From contig JAZRFJ010000028.1 of NCBI GenBank assembly GCA_045661305.1, positions 5,234-69,233 on the forward strand: a stretch of 64,000 bases of DNA, in the 5' to 3' direction. Made by a program: the position numbers and the translations under genes. Below the pieces are notes generated by a model that ran no database searches, was not told the DNA's origin, and saw only the letters and a program-made list of their open reading frames with translations. Numbering within the stretch: position 1 is the stretch's first letter; every line of letters begins with the position of its first letter. Of the stretch, positions 15,283 to 61,786 are shown one piece after another. The DNA is from Clostridia bacterium. GTDB lineage: Bacteria > Bacillota > Clostridia > UMGS1840.

Positions 15283-15363
15283 TTATTCTTTATTATGGAG
15301 TATAAACATTGTTACGGGTACAATTATTGCAATAGCTATCGCAAGCCAGGTGGTAAAATTCAT
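15283..15363 (-). CDS. possible 26-aa hydrophobic micro-protein (MNFTTWLAIAIAIIVPVTMFILHNKE)
   Basis: Not in the ORF track (too short). Strong RBS AAAGGAG 7 nt upstream of the ATG. One predicted TM helix. Lies directly upstream of the LCP pair. No homology evidence. Confidence 0.3.
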   Translation of the reverse strand: MNFTTWLAIAIAIIVPVTMFILHNKE

Positions 15364-15414
15364 AGTGTTTCTCCTTTCTTTCGGAAGTTCGTGTCAAGAC
15401 CAGATTAAAAATTA

Positions 15415-15705
15415 TTATTTATCATAATATTTATATCCGCAAAAAGGACATTTTGGATAATCTAAATCGTGCTTCTTAGCACATTTGGGACATTGGATTT
15501 GTGCTATACCATTCTCTTCTTGATGTTCAGTATGATAAAACTCAATTTTACCACATCTCTCACATGAATATATATCAACTTCCATTGCACCAGCAATTAT
15601 ATTCGGCAAATCGCCTAAAATCCAACCAGTTTCTCCTAATTGAATTTTTCTTGAACCACTGTATTTCATTTTATTATTACATCTTAAACATACTAACTCT
15701 TTCAT
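15415..15705 (-). CDS. hypothetical double zinc-ribbon protein
   Basis: 96 aa with CLRC...CERC and CPKC...CPFC pairs. RBS AAAGGAGA. Confidence 0.55.
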   Translation of the reverse strand: MKELVCLRCNNKMKYSGSRKIQLGETGWILGDLPNIIAGAMEVDIYSCERCGKIEFYHTEHQEENGIAQIQCPKCAKKHDLDYPKCPFCGYKYYDK

Positions 15706-15717
15706 ATCCTATCTCCT

Positions 15718-15734
15718 TTCGGAAACTTTCGACA
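15718..15734 (-). promoter_or_regulatory. tandem Spo0A-box-like heptamers (TGTCGAA agt TTCCGAA) in the leader of 15415-15705
   Basis: The minus strand reads TGTCGAA (perfect 0A box), a 3-bp spacer, then TTCCGAA (6/7 to TGNCGAA). This is the same 7+3+7 geometry as the tandem 0A boxes of B. subtilis abrB. Confidence 0.45.
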
Positions 15735-15740
15735 TTCTTT

Positions 15741-15936
15741 ATATAAAGACTGTATAATCCGGATGCCAAGCATTTTTTATGAATTGACAACTCCGTTGTC
15801 ATGAATTGGCTCTGCCATGAATTCTCACTGACGCTCCATGAATTGAATTGCCTTAATGCACGAAGTGCAATTCATGAGCTGTAAGGCTCAATTCATGAAA
15901 CCTTTGATTTCAATTCATGCCGCAGGCAATTCATTG
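15741..15936 (+). repeat. repeat family R1, copy A: promoter-like module plus an array of short hairpins punctuated by CATGAATT (x4) then AATTCATG (x4)
   Basis: Direct-repeat partner at 18241-18438. Octamers start at 15779, 15801, 15817, 15838 and at 15869, 15890, 15912, 15928. Each inter-octamer segment is a small palindrome. The left end carries TGTATAAT on plus and TTGGCA-N17-TTATAT on minus. Confidence 0.85.
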
Positions 15937-15955
15937 CAGTCACAGACCGCATACG

Positions 15956-16123
15956 CTCGTGCCAAGTCAGGCGAACAGTGAATAATAGGACCTACTATTT
16001 TCTGTTCTTGTTTTCCTAAACAAAATCCATCAGAACCCGCAGGAATATTAGATTTTCCTGCCCGATATGTAAATATTTATTATCGGCAAACTAATCTTTT
16101 AAATTGTATGGACTTGACACAAG
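15956..16123. repeat. repeat family R2, copy A: 168-bp unit bounded by 13-bp terminal inverted repeats (MITE-like, switch-like, or structured RNA)
   Basis: CTCGTGCCAAGTC ... GACTTGACACAAG. Both ends are conserved with copy B and the centre has diverged apart from a covarying hairpin at 16039-16061. The unit ends 20 nt from the stop codon of 16143-16679. Confidence 0.8.
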
Positions 16124-16142
16124 TATGTAAACCCACTAAAAA

Positions 16143-16679
16143 CTATAAATTAAGTTTTCCTTTCATCTGTTTTGCATAAGGAATATCATCTATGCATATT
16201 TCAACAAACTGTATTACTGCATTGGCATAATCATTCCAATCTGCATCCTCATCTAAAATGACTTCATCAACGCCTAAATACTGATAACCACTTTTACAAG
16301 GCAACAACAAAGACACATACTTGCCTTGCATATCATCCCAACCAAGATGTATATATCTTTTTCCTTTTATTGCTTTTTTGAAACCTTTAATGCCATAATA
16401 TTTTTCTTCAAAAGTATTTTTACCCGAAAAATCATTGTATGATTCGTGCTGATTCCATTGTTCAATACCATATTTAATTTTTTCAGCTAGTTCTTCTTTG
16501 GTATATGGGCTTTTTAATTCTATAGGGTAATACGCTGTACAAAACCACGGCTCGTTTATTATTGTTCCATCCGCTAATTTTTGAGGTTCGTTGGTTTCAC
16601 TTTGCGGAAAAATAACGATGTCTTTTTCCTCATTCACATAAATATCAATCCATCTGAATTCTTCAAAATTAACTTTCAT
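16143..16679 (-). CDS. hypothetical cytoplasmic protein (acidic, about 178 aa)
   Basis: ORF 16143-16721 in the track. I prefer the start at MKVNFEEF (16679) because of the RBS GAAAGGTG. No family recognised with confidence. Size and acidity are compatible with an immunity-type protein, but that is a guess. Confidence 0.6.
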   Translation of the reverse strand: MKVNFEEFRWIDIYVNEEKDIVIFPQSETNEPQKLADGTIINEPWFCTAYYPIELKSPYTKEELAEKIKYGIEQWNQHESYNDFSGKNTFEEKYYGIKGFKKAIKGKRYIHLGWDDMQGKYVSLLLPCKSGYQYLGVDEVILDEDADWNDYANAVIQFVEICIDDIPYAKQMKGKLNL

Positions 16680-16711
16680 TTTTCCACACCTTTCTACATC
16701 ATTATATACCA

Positions 16712-16728
16712 TTCGACACAATTCTTAC
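16712..16728 (-). promoter_or_regulatory. Spo0A-box-like site (GTAAGAA ttg TGTCGAA) upstream of 16143-16679
   Basis: Perfect TGTCGAA on minus (16718-16712) with a degenerate partner 3 bp upstream. TGGTATATAAT (extended -10-like) follows immediately downstream. Confidence 0.4.
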
Positions 16729-16913
16729 TCGTGTCAAGTCAGGAGAACAGTGAATAATAGGAACTACTATTTTTGCCCTATTTTTTCAACTGTTTTTCTT
16801 TTAACACTTTTCCCTAGAACCCGTGAGAACACTGGATTTTCTCGCATTCGATAGTATATGTAAATATCAAAATCGGCAAACTAATCTTTTAAATTGTATG
16901 GACTTGACACGAG
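16728..16913. repeat. repeat family R2, copy B: 186-bp unit with perfect 13-bp terminal inverted repeats
   Basis: CTCGTGTCAAGTC (16728-16740) and GACTTGACACGAG (16901-16913) are exact reverse complements. Internal hairpin at 16823-16845. The unit ends 20 nt from the stop codon of 16933-17541. Confidence 0.85.
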
Positions 16914-16932
16914 TAACATGAATTTTAATTCT

Positions 16933-17541
16933 TCAATACAAGGATACGGGCTCCCAACCATAATGCTTGATGTAATTAATATCTAATCCGTTATGCTCTG
17001 CGTACATTCGCATGAATTCTATCTCTGCTTGATCGTTATCGTGATGGGTCATAAATTTATCATAAAGACCTGTATAGCCTTTTGTAAACTCTTTGATACT
17101 TTCAGCATAGTGCTCTCCGTCACCAGCTTTCTCAACAGATACAACAACATATCCGTTTTCTGTTTCTTTTAAATGAAAACAAGCAGGCATCTCTCCGCCA
17201 CCACCCTGCACCATTGTATCCCCCTCTAAGCGATAACCACCCGACCAGAAATTACCAAACACCAAATGCTCTCCATCACGGTCCGTCTCTTCTAAAATCA
17301 CAAACGAAGGAATCCAAACATCACCATAGCTTGCGTGACGCTCTGCTTCTTCATTAAACCAGTCACAAATAGCTGCAATAGCAAGGTTATCACCCACATA
17401 TACAAACGAGGGCATCTGTGTACCATCCTTTTGAGTAATATTAAATTGTGGTCCTCCGGAAGCAAGCGGTGGTTTTTCTGTCTTTTGACCGCAGCTGCAC
17501 AAAAGAAAAACAATCAAAAATAACACTAATATTTTTTTCAT
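16933..17541 (-). CDS. hypothetical lipoprotein
   Basis: 202 aa. Signal peptide with lipobox (LFLIVFLLCSC, Cys at the cleavage site). No recognised domain. Confidence 0.7.
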   Translation of the reverse strand: MKKILVLFLIVFLLCSCGQKTEKPPLASGGPQFNITQKDGTQMPSFVYVGDNLAIAAICDWFNEEAERHASYGDVWIPSFVILEETDRDGEHLVFGNFWSGGYRLEGDTMVQGGGGEMPACFHLKETENGYVVVSVEKAGDGEHYAESIKEFTKGYTGLYDKFMTHHDNDQAEIEFMRMYAEHNGLDINYIKHYGWEPVSLY

Positions 17542-17627
17542 AAAAACACTTCCTTTATATTATTTTCATATATCATATCAAAATAAGTGTGCTATAAACC
17601 TGACTTTTCTATCATTATTCAATAAAC

Positions 17628-17644
17628 TTCGACACAATTCGACT
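17628..17644 (-). promoter_or_regulatory. tandem Spo0A-box-like heptamers (AGTCGAA ttg TGTCGAA) upstream of the lipoprotein gene
   Basis: The minus strand reads CTTGACA aaa GTCGAA ttg TGTCGAA. This is a perfect box plus a 6/7 box with a 3-bp spacer, directly downstream of a TTGACA hexamer. Confidence 0.45.
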
Positions 17645-17729
17645 TTTGTCAAGACCGGCTAAAAAAATCACATCTGTATAAAAGCAAGCATATAATATAC
17701 AAAAAAGAAAAATTTTGTAGGTGATTTAT

Positions 17730-18212
17730 ATGTTTAACAATTATATACCTAATTTTAAGCAAAGACCTTATGCGTTTGCAAAAATAAATGGAAGTAATGA
17801 TTACCCAAATATAAACGGGATTGCATACTTTTATAAAGTAGAATCAGGCGTAATAGTTTCCATACAACTAAAAGGTCTTCCTGTATCAGATGATATTTGT
17901 AAAAAACCAATATTTGCAGTTCATATCCACAGTGGTGGCAGTTGCACAGGCAACAGCACCGACCCTTTCGCAAACGCCATGACACACTATAATCCAAACA
18001 ATTGCAATCACCCCTACCATGCAGGCGACTTACCGCCTATATTTGGTGCGAACGGGATTGGTTTCTCTGCATTTTTAACAAATCGATTTTCTCCTGAAGA
18101 GATAATAGGAAAAACTATTATAATCCATTCCGCACCCGATGACTTTACAACTCAACCATCAGGAAATTCAGGTATGAAAATTGCTTGCGGTGTGATTTCT
18201 TCTGTATATTAG
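17730..18212 (+). CDS. sodC: Cu/Zn superoxide dismutase family protein, no signal peptide
   Basis: FAVHIHSGGSC, HYNP, NHPYHAGDLP and IIIHSAPDD give the full set of His/Asp metal ligands. I prefer the start at 17730 (RBS AGGTGA) over the GTG at 17721. Confidence 0.8.
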   Translation: MFNNYIPNFKQRPYAFAKINGSNDYPNINGIAYFYKVESGVIVSIQLKGLPVSDDICKKPIFAVHIHSGGSCTGNSTDPFANAMTHYNPNNCNHPYHAGDLPPIFGANGIGFSAFLTNRFSPEEIIGKTIIIHSAPDDFTTQPSGNSGMKIACGVISSVY

Positions 18213-18240
18213 GCGATTTTATCTTGATATACGCTTTTTG

Positions 18241-18438
18241 ATATAAAGACTGTATAATCCGGATTCCAAGCTTGTTAAATGAATTGACAACTGTCGTTGT
18301 CATGAATTGGCTACGCCATGAATTCTCGCTTTGCTCCATGAATTGAATTGCCTTTTAAATGCACGAAGTGCAATTCATGAGTCGCAAGACTCAATTCATG
18401 AAATCTTTGATTTCAATTTATGCCGAAGGCAATTCATT
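18241..18438 (+). repeat. repeat family R1, copy B
   Basis: Collinear with 15741-15936 and in the same orientation. Differences cluster in hairpin loops or are compensated in stems. Lies 29 nt downstream of the sodC stop and is followed by an 11-bp perfect hairpin at 18438-18462. Confidence 0.85.
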
Positions 18439-18514
18439 GATTTCAAGCTTTGCTTGAAATCATTATATCACCTTTGCAATAAATTGTCAATTTTTTTAAC
18501 AAAATATACACAAT

Positions 18515-18550
18515 AATGACACTCACAAAATTTATGAGTGTCATTTTATA
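18515..18550 (+). terminator. rho-independent terminator (plus-strand sense, possibly bidirectional)
   Basis: AATGACACTCA / TGAGTGTCATT stem followed by TTTATAT. Confidence 0.6.
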
Positions 18551-18564
18551 TAGATTATTAAAAC

Positions 18565-18813
18565 CTAATTCAATTCTGAAATTTTATCTATACAGCATTT
18601 ACATATTTTTTTGTTTTCAAAGTCGATAAGGTCCTCGTCTGCCCCGCAAAATAAACAAGAAATTTCATATTTTTTTATGATAACTTCTCCGTCATTTCCG
18701 ATAAAAAATTCCAAAACATCTTCCTCCGAAACATCAAGTGCTTTTCTAATCGGCTTTGGTATAAGAAGTCTTCCAAGCGGGTCGATTTGCTTTGTTATTC
18801 CTGTTGCTTTCAT
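18565..18813 (-). CDS. AbrB/MazE/SpoVT-family DNA-binding protein fused to a C-terminal CxxC...CxxC zinc-ribbon
   Basis: The N-terminus MKATGITKQIDPLGRLLIPKPIRKAL is a typical swapped-hairpin AbrB fold signature. C-terminus has CLFCG...CKCC. Start at 18813 with RBS GGAGGAAG. Confidence 0.8.
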   Translation of the reverse strand: MKATGITKQIDPLGRLLIPKPIRKALDVSEEDVLEFFIGNDGEVIIKKYEISCLFCGADEDLIDFENKKICKCCIDKISELN

Positions 18814-18865
18814 ACTTCTTCCTCCATTTTTATACATTTGTTTTCTGATTCTTTATTTTTTCTAC

Positions 18866-18894
18866 ATTATATCATGGAAAAAGAGCGATGTCAA
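18866..18894 (-). promoter_or_regulatory. near-consensus sigma-A promoter of the AbrB-like gene
   Basis: Minus strand TTGACA, 17 nt, TATAAT, with a TGa extended -10. A perfect TGTCGAA heptamer lies further upstream at 18940-18946 (minus sense). Confidence 0.65.
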
Positions 18895-18951
18895 GGATTT
18901 TGGCAAAAAAACCCAAAATATGTAATTTTTGCCACATATTTCGACAAATTT

Positions 18952-19731
18952 CTACTTTACAACTGTCTTTAAGTATGTCAAGGTTTTTGGGACAAAGTCA
19001 ATTTGCGTCAAAAAAAGTCTTTCCGAGAACGAAAAAAGCTCGTTGTGGAAAAGCTCACCGAGATTAAATTTCAAAAAAGAACTAAGCTCAGCCTCAGTTA
19101 TATACTTTATACATTTATAAGCATCAAAGCTTATTTTTTTTATGTGGTCACCCGAAACACTCATACACTCGTCACAAGAAAGAATGTTTTCAATGAAATT
19201 ATAAAAAACAAATTCGCTGTCATTAAACTTCTTCTGGCAGAACATACACTCCGACATTTCGGGAACAACACCCAGAATAACACAAAGTCTTATTTCAAAC
19301 GCAGACTTTATAAGAAGGGACGACTTAACATTATTTGAAAGTGCATATAAAGAGTTGAGAGCAAGCCTTAATATTTCTTCGTCAGGCTGTTCATAAGTAC
19401 CTGTCAACCTAACTGCCTCCAAAATATAGCAACCAACGGCAAACGCAGTAATATCCTTTTTAATATCAAAAAAATTAGTAATTATATTACATTCCCTTAC
19501 AGTATAAATCTGCTTGTTGCGTGTTAAGATATAATCTCCGTAGCAAAACATATTTATTCCTGCCATATCTTTACGCTTTAAACTTTTTGCACCGGGTGCT
19601 TTTGCGTTTATAAGTCCATATTCATCTGTATAGACAGTAAGCATTTTGTCGCCCTCGTTAATCGCAGTTTCACCGACAACAATCCCTTTTGCAGTTAAAA
19701 AGTCCAAGAAAGCACCCCCATTATGAAACAA
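18952..19731 (-). CDS. recO: DNA repair protein RecO
   Basis: 259 aa. N-terminal OB-fold pattern (KGIVVGETAINEGDKMLTVYTDEYGLINAKAPGAKS) and C-terminal CxxC...CxxC zinc motif (CMFC...CDEC). The start codon is uncertain because the TTG at 19731 sits inside the T-tract of the plsY terminator. Confidence 0.8.
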   Translation of the reverse strand: MFHNGGAFLDFLTAKGIVVGETAINEGDKMLTVYTDEYGLINAKAPGAKSLKRKDMAGINMFCYGDYILTRNKQIYTVRECNIITNFFDIKKDITAFAVGCYILEAVRLTGTYEQPDEEILRLALNSLYALSNNVKSSLLIKSAFEIRLCVILGVVPEMSECMFCQKKFNDSEFVFYNFIENILSCDECMSVSGDHIKKISFDAYKCIKYITEAELSSFLKFNLGELFHNELFSFSERLFLTQIDFVPKTLTYLKTVVK

Positions 19732-20380: not shown

Positions 20381-21712
20381 TTACAGCTTTTTCTTTTCGT
20401 TTCTTTCACGGATATAGAACTTTATAGGTGTTCCTGTATAATCAAATGCACTTCTTATCCTGTTTTCAAGATATCTTTCATAAGAAAAGTGCATCAATCT
20501 TACATCGTTTACAAATATTACAAACTGAGGGGGAGTAATATCTGATTGAACTCCGTATAAAATTTTAAGTCTTCTTCCTTTATCCGTAGGCGGCTGTACT
20601 CTTGCAGTTGCATCTGCAATGAGGTCATTTAACATACCTGTTGTAATTCTTCTTTTTGAATTTTCATAAACGCGGTCAATCATTTCAAAAATGCCTTCTA
20701 CTCTCTGTCCTGTCTTTGCTGAAATAAACATTGACGGAGCGTACATCATATATGGAAATTCTTCCATTACTTCTTTTTTCATTTCGTCCATCGTGTGAGT
20801 ATTTTTTTCAACGATATCCCATTTGTTTATAACAAATATTGAAGCTTTACCCTCGTTATGAGCATATCCTGCAATCTTTGTATCCTGTTCTGTCGGACCT
20901 TCAGTTCCGTCAATAAGAATAAGACAAACATCTGCTCTTTCAACAGCAGTATATGAGCGTAAAACAGAATATTTTTCAACCTTTTCGTTAACTCTGCTTT
21001 TTCTTCTTATTCCCGCAGTATCAATAAACAAATATTTTCTTCCGTCTTTTTCGACATAGCTGTCGATTGCATCTCTCGTTGTTCCGGGAATATTTGAAAC
21101 AATCATTCTTTCTTCGCCCAAAATACAGTTTACCAAAGAAGATTTGCCTGCATTTGGTTTTCCTACGACAGCAACCTTTATTATGTCTTCTTCCTCCTCG
21201 GAAATATCATCTGACGGAAAGCCTTTTACCACTTCGTCAAGAAGGTCACCTGTTCCCATGCCCTGAATAGCACTTATAGCAACAGGCTCACCCATTCCAA
21301 GATTGAAAAATTCGTAATATTCCATAGGTGGCTCACCCGGAGAATCGCACTTATTAACAGCAAGGACTATCGGTTTTTTAGATTTCATAAGTATCTTTGC
21401 AACTTCCTCATCATCAGGAAGAAGTCCTGTGCGAACATCTGTTAAAAATATAATTACATCAGCAGTTTCAATAGCTATTTCCGCCTGCGTACGCATCATA
21501 GCTGTTATTTCATCATCGCTGTCAGGCTCAATACCGCCTGTGTCAATAAGAAGAAAGGCTTTGTCAAGCCACTGTGCCTCGGACATTATTCTGTCTCTTG
21601 TTACACCAGGAGTATCTTCAACTATTGAAACCCTCTTCCCCACTATTCTGTTAAAAAGCTGAGATTTACCCACATTTGGGCGTCCTACTATTGCAACTAT
21701 CGGTTTTGACAT
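20381..21712 (-). CDS. der: ribosome biogenesis GTPase Der (EngA)
   Basis: Two tandem GTPase domains (GRPNVGKS and GKPNAGKS P-loops) plus a KH-like C-terminus. ATG at 21712 is preferred to the TTG at 21721. Confidence 0.95.
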   Translation of the reverse strand: MSKPIVAIVGRPNVGKSQLFNRIVGKRVSIVEDTPGVTRDRIMSEAQWLDKAFLLIDTGGIEPDSDDEITAMMRTQAEIAIETADVIIFLTDVRTGLLPDDEEVAKILMKSKKPIVLAVNKCDSPGEPPMEYYEFFNLGMGEPVAISAIQGMGTGDLLDEVVKGFPSDDISEEEEDIIKVAVVGKPNAGKSSLVNCILGEERMIVSNIPGTTRDAIDSYVEKDGRKYLFIDTAGIRRKSRVNEKVEKYSVLRSYTAVERADVCLILIDGTEGPTEQDTKIAGYAHNEGKASIFVINKWDIVEKNTHTMDEMKKEVMEEFPYMMYAPSMFISAKTGQRVEGIFEMIDRVYENSKRRITTGMLNDLIADATARVQPPTDKGRRLKILYGVQSDITPPQFVIFVNDVRLMHFSYERYLENRIRSAFDYTGTPIKFYIRERNEKKKL

Positions 21713-37341: not shown

Positions 37342-37611
37342 TTAACCTTCGTTGTTCATTTTTTCAAAGCATGCACTGCAATAAACAGGTTTGTCATCTC
37401 TTGGAATAAATGGAACCTTAGCTTCTCCGCCACAGCTAGCACATACAGCTGTATGAAGTTCTCTTTTTGCATTTTTTCTTGCAGTTCTGCAATCTTTACA
37501 TCTCTGTGGCTCGTTTTCAAAGCCTTTCTCAGCGTAAAATTCCTGTTCTCCTGCTGTGAATACAAATTCGTTTCCGCATTCTTTACATGTTAATGTTTTG
37601 TCCTGATACAT
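37342..37611 (-). CDS. zinc-ribbon protein of the CxxC-FxFTxxEQxFYxxKGFxNxPxRCxxC type
   Basis: 89 aa. CKECGNEFVFTAGEQEFYAEKGFENEPQRCKDCR plus a second CxxC...CxxC. Confidence 0.75.
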   Translation of the reverse strand: MYQDKTLTCKECGNEFVFTAGEQEFYAEKGFENEPQRCKDCRTARKNAKRELHTAVCASCGGEAKVPFIPRDDKPVYCSACFEKMNNEG

Positions 37612-37642
37612 TTTTTTGTCTCCTTAGGTTTTTAAAAATTAT

Positions 37643-38203
37643 TTATAGCATTTTTTTAATTTTTGCCTTTATCCTCTGAATAGCATTATCAACAGCTTTT
37701 GGTTCTTTTTCCATAGCTGAAGCTATTTCCTTATAGGTCATTCCGGAATTAATTAGACACAAAACACTATATTCAAAGGAACTAAGCTCATTTTTCAGAT
37801 TAAGTAAAAAATTTTCAAAGTTTTCATTATCAATATACTGTTCTTCAGGACCAAAACACAAAATAGGAATTACATTCCCGTTTTCGTCTTCAATCGGCTG
37901 ATACTCATTAAGCGGAATGTGCTTTTTCCGCAATGAATTTTTGATGGCTGTTTTAATTCTTAAAACTATGCAGTTTTTTGAAAAAATGATAAAATCAGTT
38001 CCACGCGAAATGTCGTAACTTTCTATCGCATGAAAAAGTCCTATCATTCCCTCTTGAATGATATCTTCTCTATCAGAGCCGGCAAGAAAATATTTAAGTG
38101 CAAGCGAACGGATAAACGGTTTAAATTCATCATAGATGATTTTCAGGGCATCTTCATCAAATGCCTTTGCTTTTAAAATAATTTCTCCGTCGATACTTTC
38201 CAC
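37643..38203 (-). CDS. sigma-70 family sigma factor, SigH-like
   Basis: 186 aa with GTG start. IIQEGMIGLFHAIESYD and RKKHIPLNEY closely resemble the region 2 and linker signatures of B. subtilis SigH (QEGMIGLYKAI, RQKHIPLNSY). Confidence 0.8.
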   Translation of the reverse strand: MESIDGEIILKAKAFDEDALKIIYDEFKPFIRSLALKYFLAGSDREDIIQEGMIGLFHAIESYDISRGTDFIIFSKNCIVLRIKTAIKNSLRKKHIPLNEYQPIEDENGNVIPILCFGPEEQYIDNENFENFLLNLKNELSSFEYSVLCLINSGMTYKEIASAMEKEPKAVDNAIQRIKAKIKKML

Positions 38204-47799: not shown

Positions 47800-48828
47800 A
47801 TGAAAAAAATGAAAGAGGCATTGAAAAATATTCAAATAGCTGCTGAAAAAAAGATAGCAGACGCCACAATTTCTAAAGAATTAGAAGAACTTAGGGTAAC
47901 ATATTTAGGAAAGAAAGGCGAATTAACTTCAATTTTAAAAGAAATGCGTTCTTTGTCAGCTGAAGAAAGACCGATTATCGGACAGATAGCAAACGAAGTC
48001 CGTGATTCAATCGAAAAAATGCTCAAAGAAAAAGGAGCATCTATTTACGAAAAAGAACTTGCAGAAAAACTTAAAAAAGAAAAAATTGATGTTACAATGC
48101 CTTCACGATTTATAAAGAAGGGTCACCTTCATCCGCTTACAAAAACATTAAATGAATTTTATGATATATTCACAGGTATGGGCTTTGAGGTTGCCGACGG
48201 TCCTGAGGTTGAGCTTGATTATTATAACTTTGAAGCTTTAAATCTTCCGAAAGACCATCCTGCCCGTGATACACAGGACACATTTTATATAGATGAAAAT
48301 GTAGTTTTGAGAACTCAGACATCACCTATTCAGGTGCGTATTATGGAGAAAACAAAACCGCCTATAAGATATATTGCACCGGGCAGAGTTTACAGAAGCG
48401 ATGCAGTTGATGCAACTCATTCGCCTGTTTTCCATCAGATTGAGGGTATCGTTGTTGACAAAGGAATAACAATGGCAAACTTAAAGTCAACACTTGAAAT
48501 TTTCTTGAAAAAATTCTACGGTGAGCAGACTAAAATAAGACTTCGTCCGCATCACTTCCCATTCACAGAGCCATCAGCAGAGGTTGATGTTTCTTGCTTT
48601 AACTGTGGTGGTGAAGGCTGCAGAATTTGTAAAGGCGAAGGCTTTATCGAAATTCTTGGTGCAGGAATGATTCACCCTAAGGTTTTATCAAACTGCGGTA
48701 TTGACCCTGAGGTTTATTCAGGCTTTGCGTTTGGTATCGGGCTTGAGAGAATAGTAATGCGTAAATATGATATTGATGATTTAAGATTATACTATGAAAA
48801 TGATCTTAGATTCTTAAAACAGTTTTAA
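47800..48828 (+). CDS. pheS: phenylalanine-tRNA ligase alpha subunit
   Basis: 342 aa with class II aaRS motifs ([29 protein letters not shown]). Confidence 0.97.
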
Positions 48829-48854
48829 AATATTTTAAAAAGGATGTATGAAAA

Positions 48855-51233
48855 ATGAAATTACCTTTAAGCTGGATAAATGAATATACAGATATTTCAG
48901 ACATATCCTACAAACAGTATGAACACGCTCTTACAATGAGCGGCTCAAAGGTTGAGGGCTTTGAGGATATGGCTAAAGATATAGTAAATGTAAAAACAGG
49001 AAAAATAATAAGTATGGAAAAACACCCTGATGCTGACAGACTTACAGTATGCCAGGTTAATATGGGGGAAAAAATCGGAGTAATTCAGATTGTTACTGCC
49101 GCAACAAATATGAAAGAAAATGATATTGTTCCTGTTGCACTCCATAAGTCAACTATCAAAGGCGGAGCAAAAATTGAAAAAGGAAAATTAAGAGGTGTTT
49201 TATCTAACGGTATGTTCTGCTCAACAGATGAGCTTGGTATCGGTGAGCCTAATGTTAAAGCAACTGGACTTCTTATTCTCCCATCCGATGCACCGCTTGG
49301 TATGGATATTGTTGAATATTTAAAATTAAATGACGCAATTTTTGATTTTGAAATCACTTCAAACCGCCCTGACTGCCTTAGTGTAATCGGTCTTGCAAGA
49401 GAAACAGCCGCTACATTCGGAAGAGCTTTTAATGTGAAAAAGCCTGTTGTTAAAGAGCTTGCAGGCGGAGATATAAATAGCGAGTTGAAAGTTGATGTTG
49501 AAAATTTCGAGCTTTGCAGAAGATATACAGCGAGAGTTGTAAAAAATATTAAAATTGAAGAATCACCAGAGTGGCTTAAAAGACGCTTGATTGCCTGCGG
49601 AGTAAGACCGATAAACAATATAGTTGATATAACAAACTATGTTATGCTTGAATACGGTCAGCCTATGCACGCATTTGACATTAAAAACATAAAAGACAGT
49701 CACATAATCGTCAGAAACGCAAAAGAAAACGAAACTATCACCACTTTAGACGGTATTGAAAGACAGTTATCTTCCGAAATGCTTGTTATCTGTGATGCCG
49801 ATAAGCCTGTTGCTATTGCAGGTGTTATGGGCGGAGAATTTTCAGGAATAACTGAAGATACAAAAACAATCGTTTTTGAAAGTGCTGCCTTTAACGGTGC
49901 ATCAGTAAGAAAGACAGCTAAAAAAGTAGGTCTTAGAACAGAAGCTTCTGCAAGATATGAAAAAGGTCTTGACAAGGAAATGGTTGTTGATGCGTTAGAA
50001 AGAGCGTGCGAACTTATTGAAGAGCTTTCATGCGGTGAAGTTGTAAAAGGCGTTATCGACAGAAATAACGACGAAACAAAAGACATAAAAATAAAATTCG
50101 AGCCTGCAAGAATAAATGAATTTTTAGGTACATCAATTGATGAAAACGAAATGATAAAATCACTTGAGGCACTTGAGTTTGAAGTGAAAGACGGATATAT
50201 AATTCCGCCGTCATTTAGAATTGATATTGAATGCTTTAATGATATTGCAGAGGAAGTTGTAAGAATACACGGATACGATAAAATTCCATCATCTCCTATG
50301 CAGGGTTCAGGCTTTGAGGGCGGTCTCAACAAACAGCAACAACTTGAAAAAGAAGCTAAAATGACTTTGGCAAATTTAGGACTCAGTGAAATATATACTT
50401 ATTCCTTTGAAAGTCCAAAAGCATTTGATATGCTCCTTATCCCTGAAAATTCAGATTTAAGAAATACAGTAAACATCTTAAATCCGCTTGGCAGTGATAT
50501 GTCAATTATGCGTACAACACCGCTTTATGGTATGTTGTCTACACTTTTATTAAATGAGAATAAGCGTGCAAAAGAGGCGTATCTCTTCGAGGTTGCAAAA
50601 ACATATCAGAAAATAAATGGTGAACAGCTCCCGAAAGAAACACAAAACATTACAATCGGAATGTTTGGAAATGATGTTGATTTCTTTAAATTAAAAGGTG
50701 TATGCGAAGAATTACTCGATGTATTTTCTATAAAAAATGCTAAGTTTGAAGCGTGTGAAACTGCTCCGTCATTCCACCCATACCAGACAGCAAAAATACT
50801 TTATAACGGTGAAGAAGTGGGTATAATGGGACAGATTAACCCGACAGTAAGAAATAATTTCAACATAGAAAATCCTGTTTTCTGTGCAATTATCTATTTC
50901 ACAAAAATCTGTGAGCTTGACATTGAAACTGTAAAATACAAACAGCTTAACCGTTTCCCTCAAAGTGAAAAAGATTTCAGCGTTGTTGTAGATGAAGATA
51001 TAACAGTTGATATGATTAAAGAAGTAGCTAAGAAAACTGCCGGTGAAATGCTTACCTCAATTGAGCTTTTTGATATTTATAAGGGAAGTCAGATACCAGA
51101 GGGCAAAAAGAGTGTTTCTTTCACATTTACTCTTGAAAATTATGAAAGAACTCTTACTGACGAAGAAACAAACGGTATGCTGGGTAAGATTATCGAAAGT
51201 GTAAAAGAAGCTTTCGGAGCAGAATTAAGATAA
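48855..51233 (+). CDS. pheT: phenylalanine-tRNA ligase beta subunit
   Basis: 792 aa. MKLPLSWINEY start, tRNA-binding, B3/4, B5 and FDX-ACB domains in order. Confidence 0.97.
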   Translation: MKLPLSWINEYTDISDISYKQYEHALTMSGSKVEGFEDMAKDIVNVKTGKIISMEKHPDADRLTVCQVNMGEKIGVIQIVTAATNMKENDIVPVALHKSTIKGGAKIEKGKLRGVLSNGMFCSTDELGIGEPNVKATGLLILPSDAPLGMDIVEYLKLNDAIFDFEITSNRPDCLSVIGLARETAATFGRAFNVKKPVVKELAGGDINSELKVDVENFELCRRYTARVVKNIKIEESPEWLKRRLIACGVRPINNIVDITNYVMLEYGQPMHAFDIKNIKDSHIIVRNAKENETITTLDGIERQLSSEMLVICDADKPVAIAGVMGGEFSGITEDTKTIVFESAAFNGASVRKTAKKVGLRTEASARYEKGLDKEMVVDALERACELIEELSCGEVVKGVIDRNNDETKDIKIKFEPARINEFLGTSIDENEMIKSLEALEFEVKDGYIIPPSFRIDIECFNDIAEEVVRIHGYDKIPSSPMQGSGFEGGLNKQQQLEKEAKMTLANLGLSEIYTYSFESPKAFDMLLIPENSDLRNTVNILNPLGSDMSIMRTTPLYGMLSTLLLNENKRAKEAYLFEVAKTYQKINGEQLPKETQNITIGMFGNDVDFFKLKGVCEELLDVFSIKNAKFEACETAPSFHPYQTAKILYNGEEVGIMGQINPTVRNNFNIENPVFCAIIYFTKICELDIETVKYKQLNRFPQSEKDFSVVVDEDITVDMIKEVAKKTAGEMLTSIELFDIYKGSQIPEGKKSVSFTFTLENYERTLTDEETNGMLGKIIESVKEAFGAELR

Positions 51234-55108: not shown

Positions 55109-55510
55109 TTATTCTTCAGGCTCTATTATAACAACCTCTTCTTTTTTTGTAAACTTATCTACCACCTTCTCAATTATCCCTGGTGCAACATCAATAAGCT
55201 TATCAAGAGGAGTTGTGGCAGTATCAACATTAATCATTCTTACATTATCGCCTGTAACAACAAGAAAGCCAACAGGTGAAATGCTCATTCCGCCGCCTAC
55301 TCCACCGCCGAAATTAGGTTCTTTTATTTTGTCATTCACACCCTGAAATTCACTTCCGCCTACACCAAAGCCGTAAGCTACACGGGAAATAGGAATAATT
55401 GTTGTCTTATCCCCTGCATTTATAGGTGTTCCGATGATAGTATCAACATCAACAAGGTCCTTGATGTTTTTCAAAGCTCCATCCATAATTTTTTCAATAC
55501 TTGCAGACAT
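55109..55510 (-). CDS. ytfJ: sporulation protein YtfJ/GerW family
   Basis: 133 aa. TIIPISRVAYGFGVGGSEF...GGGVGGGMSISPVGFLVV is typical of the family. Confidence 0.85.
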   Translation of the reverse strand: MSASIEKIMDGALKNIKDLVDVDTIIGTPINAGDKTTIIPISRVAYGFGVGGSEFQGVNDKIKEPNFGGGVGGGMSISPVGFLVVTGDNVRMINVDTATTPLDKLIDVAPGIIEKVVDKFTKKEEVVIIEPEE

Positions 55511-60867: not shown

Positions 60868-61056
60868 AATTTCCTCCGTTTTATTTTTTTGTTTTTGGTA
60901 TTATTTTTATAATACTATTTTTTTTCGCCTTTTAAAAAATATTCATAAATAAAAAGCCTTTTTTAATTTCTGTTCGACAAATTTTTTATATTTGTAGAAT
61001 AATTGTATGAAAAAAAATAATAAACACAAAATTTTTGGAAAAACAAGGAATTTGTA

Positions 61057-61141: not shown

Positions 61142-61786
61142 ATGTCAAAGCTTTTATTCTGCGAGAATCCTGATTACTACAAAAAAATTGACAAAAGTCT
61201 TTTATGGAGTTATTTTATAACAGACTCATGGGCGGAATGTAAAAAATATATTTCTCTTTATATGCCAAAATCTATAACAATTTCGGAAAATATGGCAGAA
61301 AATATAGATGAGTTAATAAACCATGTAAAAAAAGAATATAAAGACTTTCCGTCTATATTCATATTTTCAAAAGAGCGTATATTATCATCAATAACAGACG
61401 AATTTGGAAAAAGACAAATTCTCCATGCAGATAAAATTCCACTCGAAACTGATAAAATTATAAACAATATTATGCTAAAATACAGCTTTGTTCCAAAGCT
61501 TAAGGGTTATACATATATAAAGCGGGCAATGTATGAGGGCCTTTTGAATGACGGCGCGTATATAAATATCAAAAAAATTTTATATCCGAACATAGCAACA
61601 ATGTATCTGGTAAGCGAGGGTGCAGTAGAACGCGGGATAACCTTTTCAATACTAAAGGCATATGAAAAGAGCGAAGAAATGAAAGAACTTTTCCAAAATT
61701 CTTCTCGTCCGCCCTCTAATCTCGAATTTCTAAAACGGTTTTTCATAGTTGTAAAAGATGACTTGTCTTGTTATACACATAAATAA
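61142..61786 (+). CDS. orphan Spo0A C-terminal (DNA-binding) domain protein with a non-receiver N-terminal half
   Basis: About 214 aa from the ATG at 61142 (RBS AAGAGGTA). The C-terminal half KLKGYTYIKRAMYEGLL...KILYPNIATMYLVSEGAVERGITFSILKAY parallels the Spo0A effector domain pattern (GY.YL..AI...LYP.IA..Y.T....VER.IR.AI). The N-terminal half has no DD...D...K receiver signature. Confidence 0.6.
   Translation: MSKLLFCENPDYYKKIDKSLLWSYFITDSWAECKKYISLYMPKSITISENMAENIDELINHVKKEYKDFPSIFIFSKERILSSITDEFGKRQILHADKIPLETDKIINNIMLKYSFVPKLKGYTYIKRAMYEGLLNDGAYINIKKILYPNIATMYLVSEGAVERGITFSILKAYEKSEEMKELFQNSSRPPSNLEFLKRFFIVVKDDLSCYTHK

Follow-up and report, generated by a model that had tools for sequence, protein, structure and literature searches.

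The recognition sequences closest to those described here are the 0A boxes of the sporulation regulator Spo0A, whose core heptamer is TGNCGAA, with TGTCGAA as the best form. The classical Spo0A-repressed gene is abrB, where boxes are arranged head to tail with a 3-bp spacer. The same layout is found at A2c of phage Nf, in which Spo0A footprints two boxes with a 3-bp spacer, both of the TGTtGAA type; among mobile elements, 0A boxes are thus used by phages phi29 and Nf. Within the box the protein contacts G2, C4 and G5, and its specificity is the same in C. difficile as in B. subtilis (PMC3485338). The stretch analyzed in this work, hereafter the window, comprises 64,000 nucleotides of a Clostridia bacterium of the UMGS1840 lineage (assembly GCA_045661305.1, contig JAZRFJ010000028.1, positions 5,234 to 69,233) and contains an islet of three minus-strand genes (15415-17541) preceded by TGTCGAA heptamers. 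These heptamers are the core of a portable leader module that, in a clade of gut Clostridia, is placed on the 5' side of gene cassettes; its portability is strongly supported by the comparison with related genomes. As for the function, the cassette leaders may carry a portable operator recognized by Spo0A~P or by a DNA-binding protein of the Spo0A type, a tentative reading of the sequence to which we give a probability of about 45%.

Perfect TGTCGAA heptamers are present on the minus strand of the window at 15728-15734, 16712-16718 and 17628-17634, in front of the three islet genes, at 18940-18946, upstream of a gene for an AbrB-like protein, and at 60973-60979; two more copies, at 21050 and 41236, lie on the same strand within genes. 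Their distribution is uneven, since four of the seven fall inside 3.2 kb, five are intergenic and all are on the minus strand. The first heptamer belongs to the tandem TGTCGAA-agt-TTCCGAA (15718-15734), which is fused to the Shine-Dalgarno sequence (SD) AGGAG (15717-15713) of the Zn-ribbon gene 15415-15705; this arrangement, named class d/e (TGTCGAA nnn TGTCGAA AGGAG), is seen again in many related loci. The second is part of four phased boxes, GTAAGAA ttg TGTCGAA tgg TATATAA tga TGTAGAA (16692-16728), followed by the SD AGGTG and by the ATG at 16679; GTAAGAA, the partner of the perfect box in the 16728-16712 pair, is a weak box with three mismatches to TGNCGAA, and the array is a class-b junction that recurs in loci L016, L054, L080, L104 and L112. 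Four phased boxes, AGTCGAA ttg TGTCGAA gtt TATTGAA taa TGATAGA (17608-17644), are also found in the leader of the lipoprotein gene 16933-17541, with the pair AGTCGAA-ttg-TGTCGAA (17644-17628) directly behind a TTGACA. Three more, AGTAGAA att TGTCGAA ata TGTGGCA (18930-18956), lie about 45 bp upstream of the perfect promoter of the AbrB-like gene (18894-18866), and the box at 60973-60979, for which no phased partner was noted, is located in the divergent region between a gene labeled as CBS-domain gene in the initial annotation and an orphan Spo0A_C gene (61142-61786). The heptamer positions and 3-bp-spaced tandems listed in that annotation were all found as described on the minus strand. When pairs with no more than two summed mismatches are considered, the window contains six at offset 10 and none at offsets 7-9 and 11. 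A 13-mer (GAATTGTGTCGAA) is common to the boxes at 16712 and 17628, and all three islet boxes lie within repeated boundary modules; thus, they are related by descent and do not represent independent events.

Related loci, of 8 kb each, were retrieved from species-representative genomes using an exact 18-mer internal to a repeat element of about 190 nt found in the islet. This 18-mer identified more than 119 stretches, nearly all in metagenome-assembled genomes (MAGs) of Clostridia (Congzhengia, Ructibacterium, 'Oscillospiraceae', 'Clostridia bacterium'), where 8 kb often contain several copies. The mean column identity among the elements is 84%, a value that, as all conservation figures inside the element, is inflated by the ascertainment through the 18-mer; conversely, the junction statistics are unaffected, because the boxes lie outside the probe. 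A profile search revealed 190 element matches in 113 loci, up to six per 8 kb and on the same strand in every multi-copy locus inspected.

The boundary between cassettes consists of an arm (CC-N3-CTTGACAC), which is found either alone behind a T-run (short form) or at the 3' end of the ~190-nt hairpin-rich repeat (long form). The short form, about 25 nt long, is common and follows the order stop codon, T-run, CC-N3-CTTGACA(C/A)(G/A)A, boxes, SD and ATG. After the arm come one to four TGTCGAA-like boxes, arranged head to tail on a 10-bp phase, and the final one often merges into the next SD; in the islet each of the three boxes comes after an arm, directly or behind an inserted module. In the 90 nt after 126 unique element copies, de-duplicated by sequence and not by phylogeny, 57 perfect TGTCGAA are present compared to 1.4 expected, and none on the opposite strand; the distances between boxes in these stretches are 10 (27 times), 20 (10 times) and 30 (4 times). 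Within 70 nt past the boundary a perfect box occurs in 48 of 123 long forms and 27 of 54 short forms, versus 0.8% of random 70-nt windows from the same loci, and a box with at most one mismatch in 65-74% versus 8.5%; overall, perfect boxes are enriched about 40-fold at the cassette boundaries of other genomes. Direct pairs with up to two summed mismatches, counted on both strands of 1.78 Mb, are 131 at offset 10, 37 at offset 20 and 2-21 at the other offsets between 7 and 25. The commonest box variant, as judged by eye, is TGTTGAA. The tandem is shared by junction classes that differ in sequence (CGAACTTTGTCGAATTTTGTGAAAGGAG; GTAAGAAttgTGTCGAAtgaTGnnGAAnnnTGTTGAAAGGTG; AAAGTCGAAttgTGTCGAA; AGTCGAAttgTGTCGAA; TGTCGAAnnnTGTCGAAAGGAG, with variable spacers). 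For the spacing of arm and first box at least four classes exist (20, 25-26, 28 and 38-39 nt past the 18-mer), and the last box is separated from the SD by -2 to 38 nt.

In 91 of 92 cases the open reading frame (ORF) upstream of an element is co-oriented with it and stops 0-90 nt ahead of its start; in most copies a downstream ORF with an SD begins within about 40-100 nt. The downstream proteins are almost all unrelated, with 104 BLAST clusters, and 119 Pfam families in 135 proteins; accessory functions among them include GNATs, hydrolases, DMP19, AbiEii-type ATPases, Bro-N and WapI immunity. In related loci, different genes are found behind one and the same upstream gene. Up to the ATG, the 115-nt leader of the lipoprotein gene (17660-17542) matches positions 3858-4007 of L006 with about 90% identity, and the ORFs behind the two leaders differ; a homolog of the lipoprotein in L064, 85% identical, is instead placed behind a different junction. 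Since L006 shares the leader with another ORF and L064 shares the ORF with another junction, leader and ORF recombine independently. Indeed, leaders are mosaic and copied between loci, and homologs of the islet cassette genes are found in L032/L112 and L064 behind different junction classes.

A sister strain, represented by the metagenome contig L120, was found through its identical HrcA. The two genomes share the der-plsY-recO-abrB-sodC ... lytR-lytR-hrcA backbone with 93-98% identity; however, in L120 (4438-6268) a gene for a 194-aa protein with no Pfam match and an Acyl_transf_3 gene are present instead of the three cassettes of the window (17647-15377). Homology ends at 17647, the last base of CTTGACA of the first arm, and resumes at 15377, on the SD of a 22-codon ORF. 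The comparison directly shows cassettes being replaced at a fixed position of the chromosome. Exchange breakpoints vary in position: some coincide with the arm, the SD or the ATG and others precede the boxes, the AKR pair being among the examples. No synteny with the recO-lytR site of the window was found among the 119 loci. The proposal of the initial annotation that the boxes belong to a portable 5' module of the cassettes is strongly supported, as in dozens of genomes they recur within an exchangeable leader that precedes unrelated genes. Its statement that three such boxes are unlikely to be due to chance agrees with the local clustering and with the strong boundary enrichment elsewhere, although the three boxes cannot be taken as independent.

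The arrays resemble integrons and clusters of attC sites lacking integron-integrases (CALIN) in several respects: accessory genes are diverse and co-oriented, with a conserved repeat bounded by terminal inverted repeats between them, cassettes without an ORF are present, the content at a fixed chromosomal site is strain-variable, and some arrays begin behind a recombinase gene and a promoter-bearing repeat. Cassettes are mostly promoterless, as expected for integrons. Differently from integrons, no IntI-type tyrosine recombinase was seen and the adjacent enzymes are large serine recombinases (LSRs), which are co-oriented and not divergent; moreover, the repeat is about 190 nt long and conserved in sequence across species, it has a short form of about 25 nt, and no single breakpoint position exists. 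No attC cores (RYYYAAC...GTTRRRY) were found, the arms here being TTACTCGTGTCAAGTC/GACTTGACACGAGTAA, and complementarity of the R'/R'' type gave no signal at the level of the cassette or of the element (4.1 and 3.8 matches out of 8, versus 4.0-4.1 in permuted pairs). Miniature inverted-repeat transposable element (MITE)-like repeats, as the Correia elements, RUP and bcr1, are also short, non-coding and present in many copies, have terminal inverted repeats and can bear regulatory signals; however, in the present case orientation is tied to the flanking genes and the copies are clustered in islets and not dispersed. No target-site duplication was seen at the two window copies of the long element. 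The repeat did not match annotated plasmids and phages, and only one IMG/VR contig was matched. No prior description of the element or of the array system was found in the literature searched, and the cassette-array system is apparently undescribed so far.

The LSR genes deserve separate consideration. At nine loci (L009, L043, L050, L069, L070, L085, L095, L098 and L115) one to three tandem LSR genes, with Resolvase, Recombinase and Zn_ribbon_recom domains, are co-oriented with an element copy and end 25-430 nt upstream of it; the element is adjacent in all nine. Where readable (L009, L043, L085, L095 and L098), this element is the variant with a TTGCAA-17-TGaTATAAT promoter. The element next to the LSR genes in L115 is truncated at model position 64, with an arm-like sequence before it, and may represent an integration junction. 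No recombinase is found near the islet of the window. A broader scheme can be drawn, in which the ~190-nt repeat and the short arm site would form an integron-like capture system, mobilized by LSRs and not by IntI, with the 0A boxes of the leader putting all captured genes, ORF-less RNA cassettes included, under Spo0A control; as a whole, we consider this scheme rather unlikely.

The proposal that the boxes are a portable Spo0A operator is favored by their sequence and layout. The islet boxes and that at 18940 conform to the core heptamer of the 0A box, and the head-to-tail arrangement with 3-bp spacers known from abrB and Nf A2c is reproduced by the pairs at offset 10; these pairs are read as a Spo0A layout because their 7+3 head-to-tail phase equals that footprinted in phage Nf. 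An exact 10-bp phase of a 7-bp motif is expected when helix-turn-helix (HTH) monomers line up along the same side of the DNA helix. The recurrence of the tandem in junction classes with unrelated flanks, the presence in the window of a gene for a Spo0A_C-domain protein and the triple phased array of the AbrB-like gene beside the islet are also counted in favor. The window also encodes a GerW/YtfJ sporulation protein (55109-55510, minus strand) scoring above the curated cut-off; on this basis the host looks like a member of an endospore-forming lineage. The ytfJ gene sits in a scpA-scpB-(unknown)-ytfJ-D,D-carboxypeptidase cluster. No canonical spo0A gene is present within the 64 kb or in the 8-kb related loci.

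With respect to the operators of abrB and of phi29/Nf, the likeness involves the identical core TGTCGAA, head-to-tail pairs, the spacer and TGTtGAA variants; in addition, the placement of the boxes would suit repression at or downstream of the transcription start, and the phages offer a precedent for mobile elements that use the master regulator of their host. The differences are that here the boxes, a predicted operator only, are carried in a standardized, exchangeable leader before many unrelated accessory genes, that up to four phased boxes occur, often fused with the SD, and that no defined promoter context was found. The predicted binding site is of a known type, the 0A box, and its packaging as a standard exchangeable leader is new. 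According to the mechanism proposed, the phased boxes would act as operator for Spo0A~P dimers or oligomers, less likely for a paralog with a Spo0A_C domain; as Spo0A~P rises, its binding would repress or roadblock the upstream transcripts entering the cassette, as at abrB, since in most cases the boxes are located between the SD and any promoter further upstream; whatever gene is inserted behind the leader would thereby be tied to the transition-state/sporulation decision. As a rule, the last box touches or overlaps the SD, leaving no room for a downstream promoter; therefore, repression or roadblock would be plausible at these positions, where activation is excluded.

Other observations weigh against an operator. 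TGTCGAA is not enriched over the whole window, where it occurs seven times compared to 6.27 +/- 2.28 expected from dinucleotide shuffles, so that the whole-window count suggested in the initial annotation as an enrichment test gave a negative result; the same holds for TGNCGAA (30 versus 25.2). The heptamer signal is local and comparative only, and not window-wide. About half of the boundaries do not have a perfect box, and in L120 it is absent from all three; the claim of the initial annotation that each islet gene is boxed is therefore valid for this strain, and does not extend to the sister strain or to the boundaries as a whole. Many copies are related by descent, hence the boundary counts overstate the number of independent events. 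Sigma-A promoter-like sites upstream of the boxes are not enriched (17 of 170, versus 18 in shuffles), and, where the long-element promoter is present, the boxes are located more than 100 nt downstream, leaving the operator geometry undefined. Finally, TGTCGAA is also the bulged complement of the TTGACA of the arm, which provides a reason for the sequence that is independent of Spo0A. Thus, the assignment to Spo0A made in the initial annotation finds agreement in the identity of the heptamer, the 10-bp phase, the TGTTGAA variant and the GerW/YtfJ-encoding host, and no agreement in promoter geometry, which is not consistent. In a few class-e modules a TTGGCA-18-TATAnT sequence ends 5 nt ahead of the first box; their interpretation as a general promoter-operator unit was dropped, as promoters are not enriched over shuffles. 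Promoters for sigma-54, sigma-H, sigma-D, extracytoplasmic function (ECF) sigma factors, sigma-E and sigma-K, the LexA Cheo box and WalR repeats were also considered for arm and box and set aside, since their consensus differs in spacing or sequence.

Four other explanations can be compared with the operator. Boxes and arm could constitute a recombination site, or accessory sites, for the enzyme that moves the cassettes, for example an LSR, the likeness to 0A boxes being coincidental. The strain-replacement breakpoint lying exactly at the arm (17647), the imperfect palindrome TTGACAC-N7-11-GTGTC(G)AA formed by the arm and the first box, the co-oriented LSR genes close upstream of the element at all nine loci having them and the different genes found behind one upstream gene would all be in line with this possibility; however, the arm-to-box distances are not those of a rigid dimer site, and the variability of the breakpoints fits better with homologous exchange between similar leaders. 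Since, in addition, the 5'-arm flanks show no complementarity with the junctions, per cassette or per element, half of the boundaries are devoid of a box and the islet has no recombinase nearby, a recombination site is considered unlikely. A role at the RNA level is another possibility: UGUCGAA in the 5' untranslated region (UTR) could pair with the arm (CUUGACAC), in competition with the 5' arm, or bind an RNA-binding regulator, controlling SD access or mRNA stability. Strict orientation and the adjacency or fusion of the boxes to the SD are compatible with such a signal, as is the UUGACA-UGUC(G)AA pairing, which leaves a single bulge and makes 5' arm, 3' arm and box three mutually exclusive partners; the neighboring elements, moreover, are rich in hairpins, some with compensatory changes. 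Conversely, the boxes do not covary with arm variants, as far as can be judged by eye (e.g., in L105; arms CTTGATAC and CATGACAC), loop length and the distance between last box and SD are variable, the second to fourth phased boxes have no partner to pair with, and the exact 10-nt periodicity of the 7-nt motif is characteristic of proteins binding one face of B-DNA and not of known RNA-binding regulators; an RNA-level role is accordingly judged quite improbable.

The remaining two explanations concern the origin of the boxes and the identity of the protein that would bind them. The boxes could have no function of their own and merely be contained in a few leader modules recently amplified together with the repeats. 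High similarity among the elements, the 13-mer shared by descent between the 16712 and 17628 boxes, the mosaic leaders and the dispensability of boxes at many boundaries agree with neutral hitch-hiking, which nevertheless does not account easily for the recurrence of the 7+3 tandem in junction classes with unrelated flanks and variable spacers, nor for the persistence of the boxes in dozens of MAGs that represent different species; there is also little chance for an arbitrary 7-mer to match both consensus and spacing of 0A boxes in a Firmicute bearing a sporulation gene. Overall, this explanation appears distinctly unlikely. As an alternative to canonical Spo0A, the boxes could be the operator of the orphan protein encoded at 61142-61786 (plus strand, 214 aa), which has a Spo0A_C domain (E 1e-12) and no detectable receiver domain, or of a similar paralog. 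The initial annotation had indicated this protein as a possible binder, and the perfect box at 60973-60979 in its upstream divergent region speaks for it. However, its recognition helix is diverged (SRVERAIRHAIEVAW to GAVERGITFSILKAY), so that the same specificity is not expected, and its identity with the B. subtilis C-domain is 29%; no homolog was found in the 119 related loci, which is uninformative as these span only 8 kb each. The orphan protein is thus the weaker candidate with respect to Spo0A, and this version of the operator is very improbable.

The islet encodes, on the minus strand, the Zn-ribbon protein (15415-15705), a protein of 178 aa (16143-16679) and the lipoprotein of 202 aa (16933-17541); the last two have no Pfam match, and an exact-protein look-up of two islet proteins and two other window proteins retrieved no record. 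Two copies of the long repeat are present on the same strand, a short variant with 3' arm CTTGGCAC at 15954-16125 (nhmmer score 161) and a copy with 16-bp perfect terminal inverted repeats (TTACTCGTGTCAAGTC ... GACTTGACACGAGTAA) at 16725-16916 (nhmmer score 193). The left end of the strain-variable islet is the short-form boundary TTTTTTTAGCC-GGTCTTGACA (17646-17660, minus strand); the right end is the one at 15377-15410 (minus strand), formed by GGTCTTGACACGAAC, the degenerate box TTCCGAA (15386-15380) and the SD of the 22-codon ORF (15362-15294). Thus, besides those of the long repeats, two solo copies of the 3' arm (GGTCTTGACA) are found, at 17655-17646 and 15401-15392. The 22-codon ORF (MNFTTWLAIAIAIIVPVTMFIL...) is conserved in the sister strain, and a similar one is present in L004; both are tiny hydrophobic ORFs behind cassette leaders. 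As for the structure of the ~190-nt repeat, it displays conserved internal hairpins (GCGAGAA/TTCTCGC versus GCAGGAA/TTCCTGC), one of which, CAGTGAA...TTCACTG, is changed to CAGAAAA...TTTTCTG in L080; it has a palindromic center, GCCGAT-N15-22-ATCGGC, resembling the att site of serine recombinases, and one variant bears TTGCAA-17-TGaTATAAT.

Between the 3' arm and the boxes of the Zn-ribbon gene an ORF-less insert is located (15735-15936, minus strand), which comprises copy 1 of a hairpin array with the words CATGAATTG/CAATTCATG, followed by the recurrent module GGCATCCGGATTATACAGTCTTTATA. A second copy (18235-18439, minus strand) lies behind a perfect TTGACA-17-TGnTATAAT promoter (18490-18462); the two are 88-100% identical, block by block, and further copies are present in L002 (5470-5700) and L094 (4470-4700). 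The array, about 200 nt long, contains four CATGAATTG and four CAATTCATG words with nested pairing around small GC hairpins and several UUCG-type loops; its consensus fold has an energy of -38.5 kcal/mol and includes two compensatory pairs. Copy 2 and the L002 copy begin right behind a TGnTATAAT promoter, and copy 1 and the L094 copy are ORF-less cassettes flanked by arms. Judging from these features, the hairpin array is probably a small structured RNA gene. A scan of the whole window with Rfam 15 at gathering scores gave zero matches, leaving repeat, junction and hairpin array unmatched, and an E-value scan of 15300-19000 gave chance-level matches only (E >= 0.6).

The AbrB-like protein (18565-18813, minus strand) has an AbrB/MazE fold and a C-terminal CxxC...CxxC zinc-ribbon tail, and its gene is preceded by a perfect TTGACA-17-TATAAT promoter. 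An arm-like sequence, CCTTGACATAC, is found inside the end of recO, just upstream of the boxes of this gene; because of this location, the AbrB-like gene itself may be the first cassette. Elsewhere in the window, a stretch of about 300 nt (37355-37656) is 77-81% identical to L104 (5036-5312) and to L090 (6723-7029) and shares part of its length with an ORF of 125 codons that has no Pfam match; the stretch may be either a small conserved gene or a non-coding element. Firmicutes usually carry a T-box upstream of pheST; the gathering-score Rfam scan detected no tRNA, riboswitch or T-box in the 64 kb, including the region upstream of pheST (47800-51233).

Classical integrons are regarded as rare in Firmicutes. 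The array system described here, with its structured repeat, arm site, ORF-less RNA cassettes and nearby serine recombinases, is found in dozens of uncultured gut Clostridia and bears on the organization of accessory-gene pools in this phylum. If the boxes bind Spo0A, horizontally acquired genes would have a built-in wiring into the master developmental regulator of the cell, and regulation would arrive with the landing site and not with the gene.

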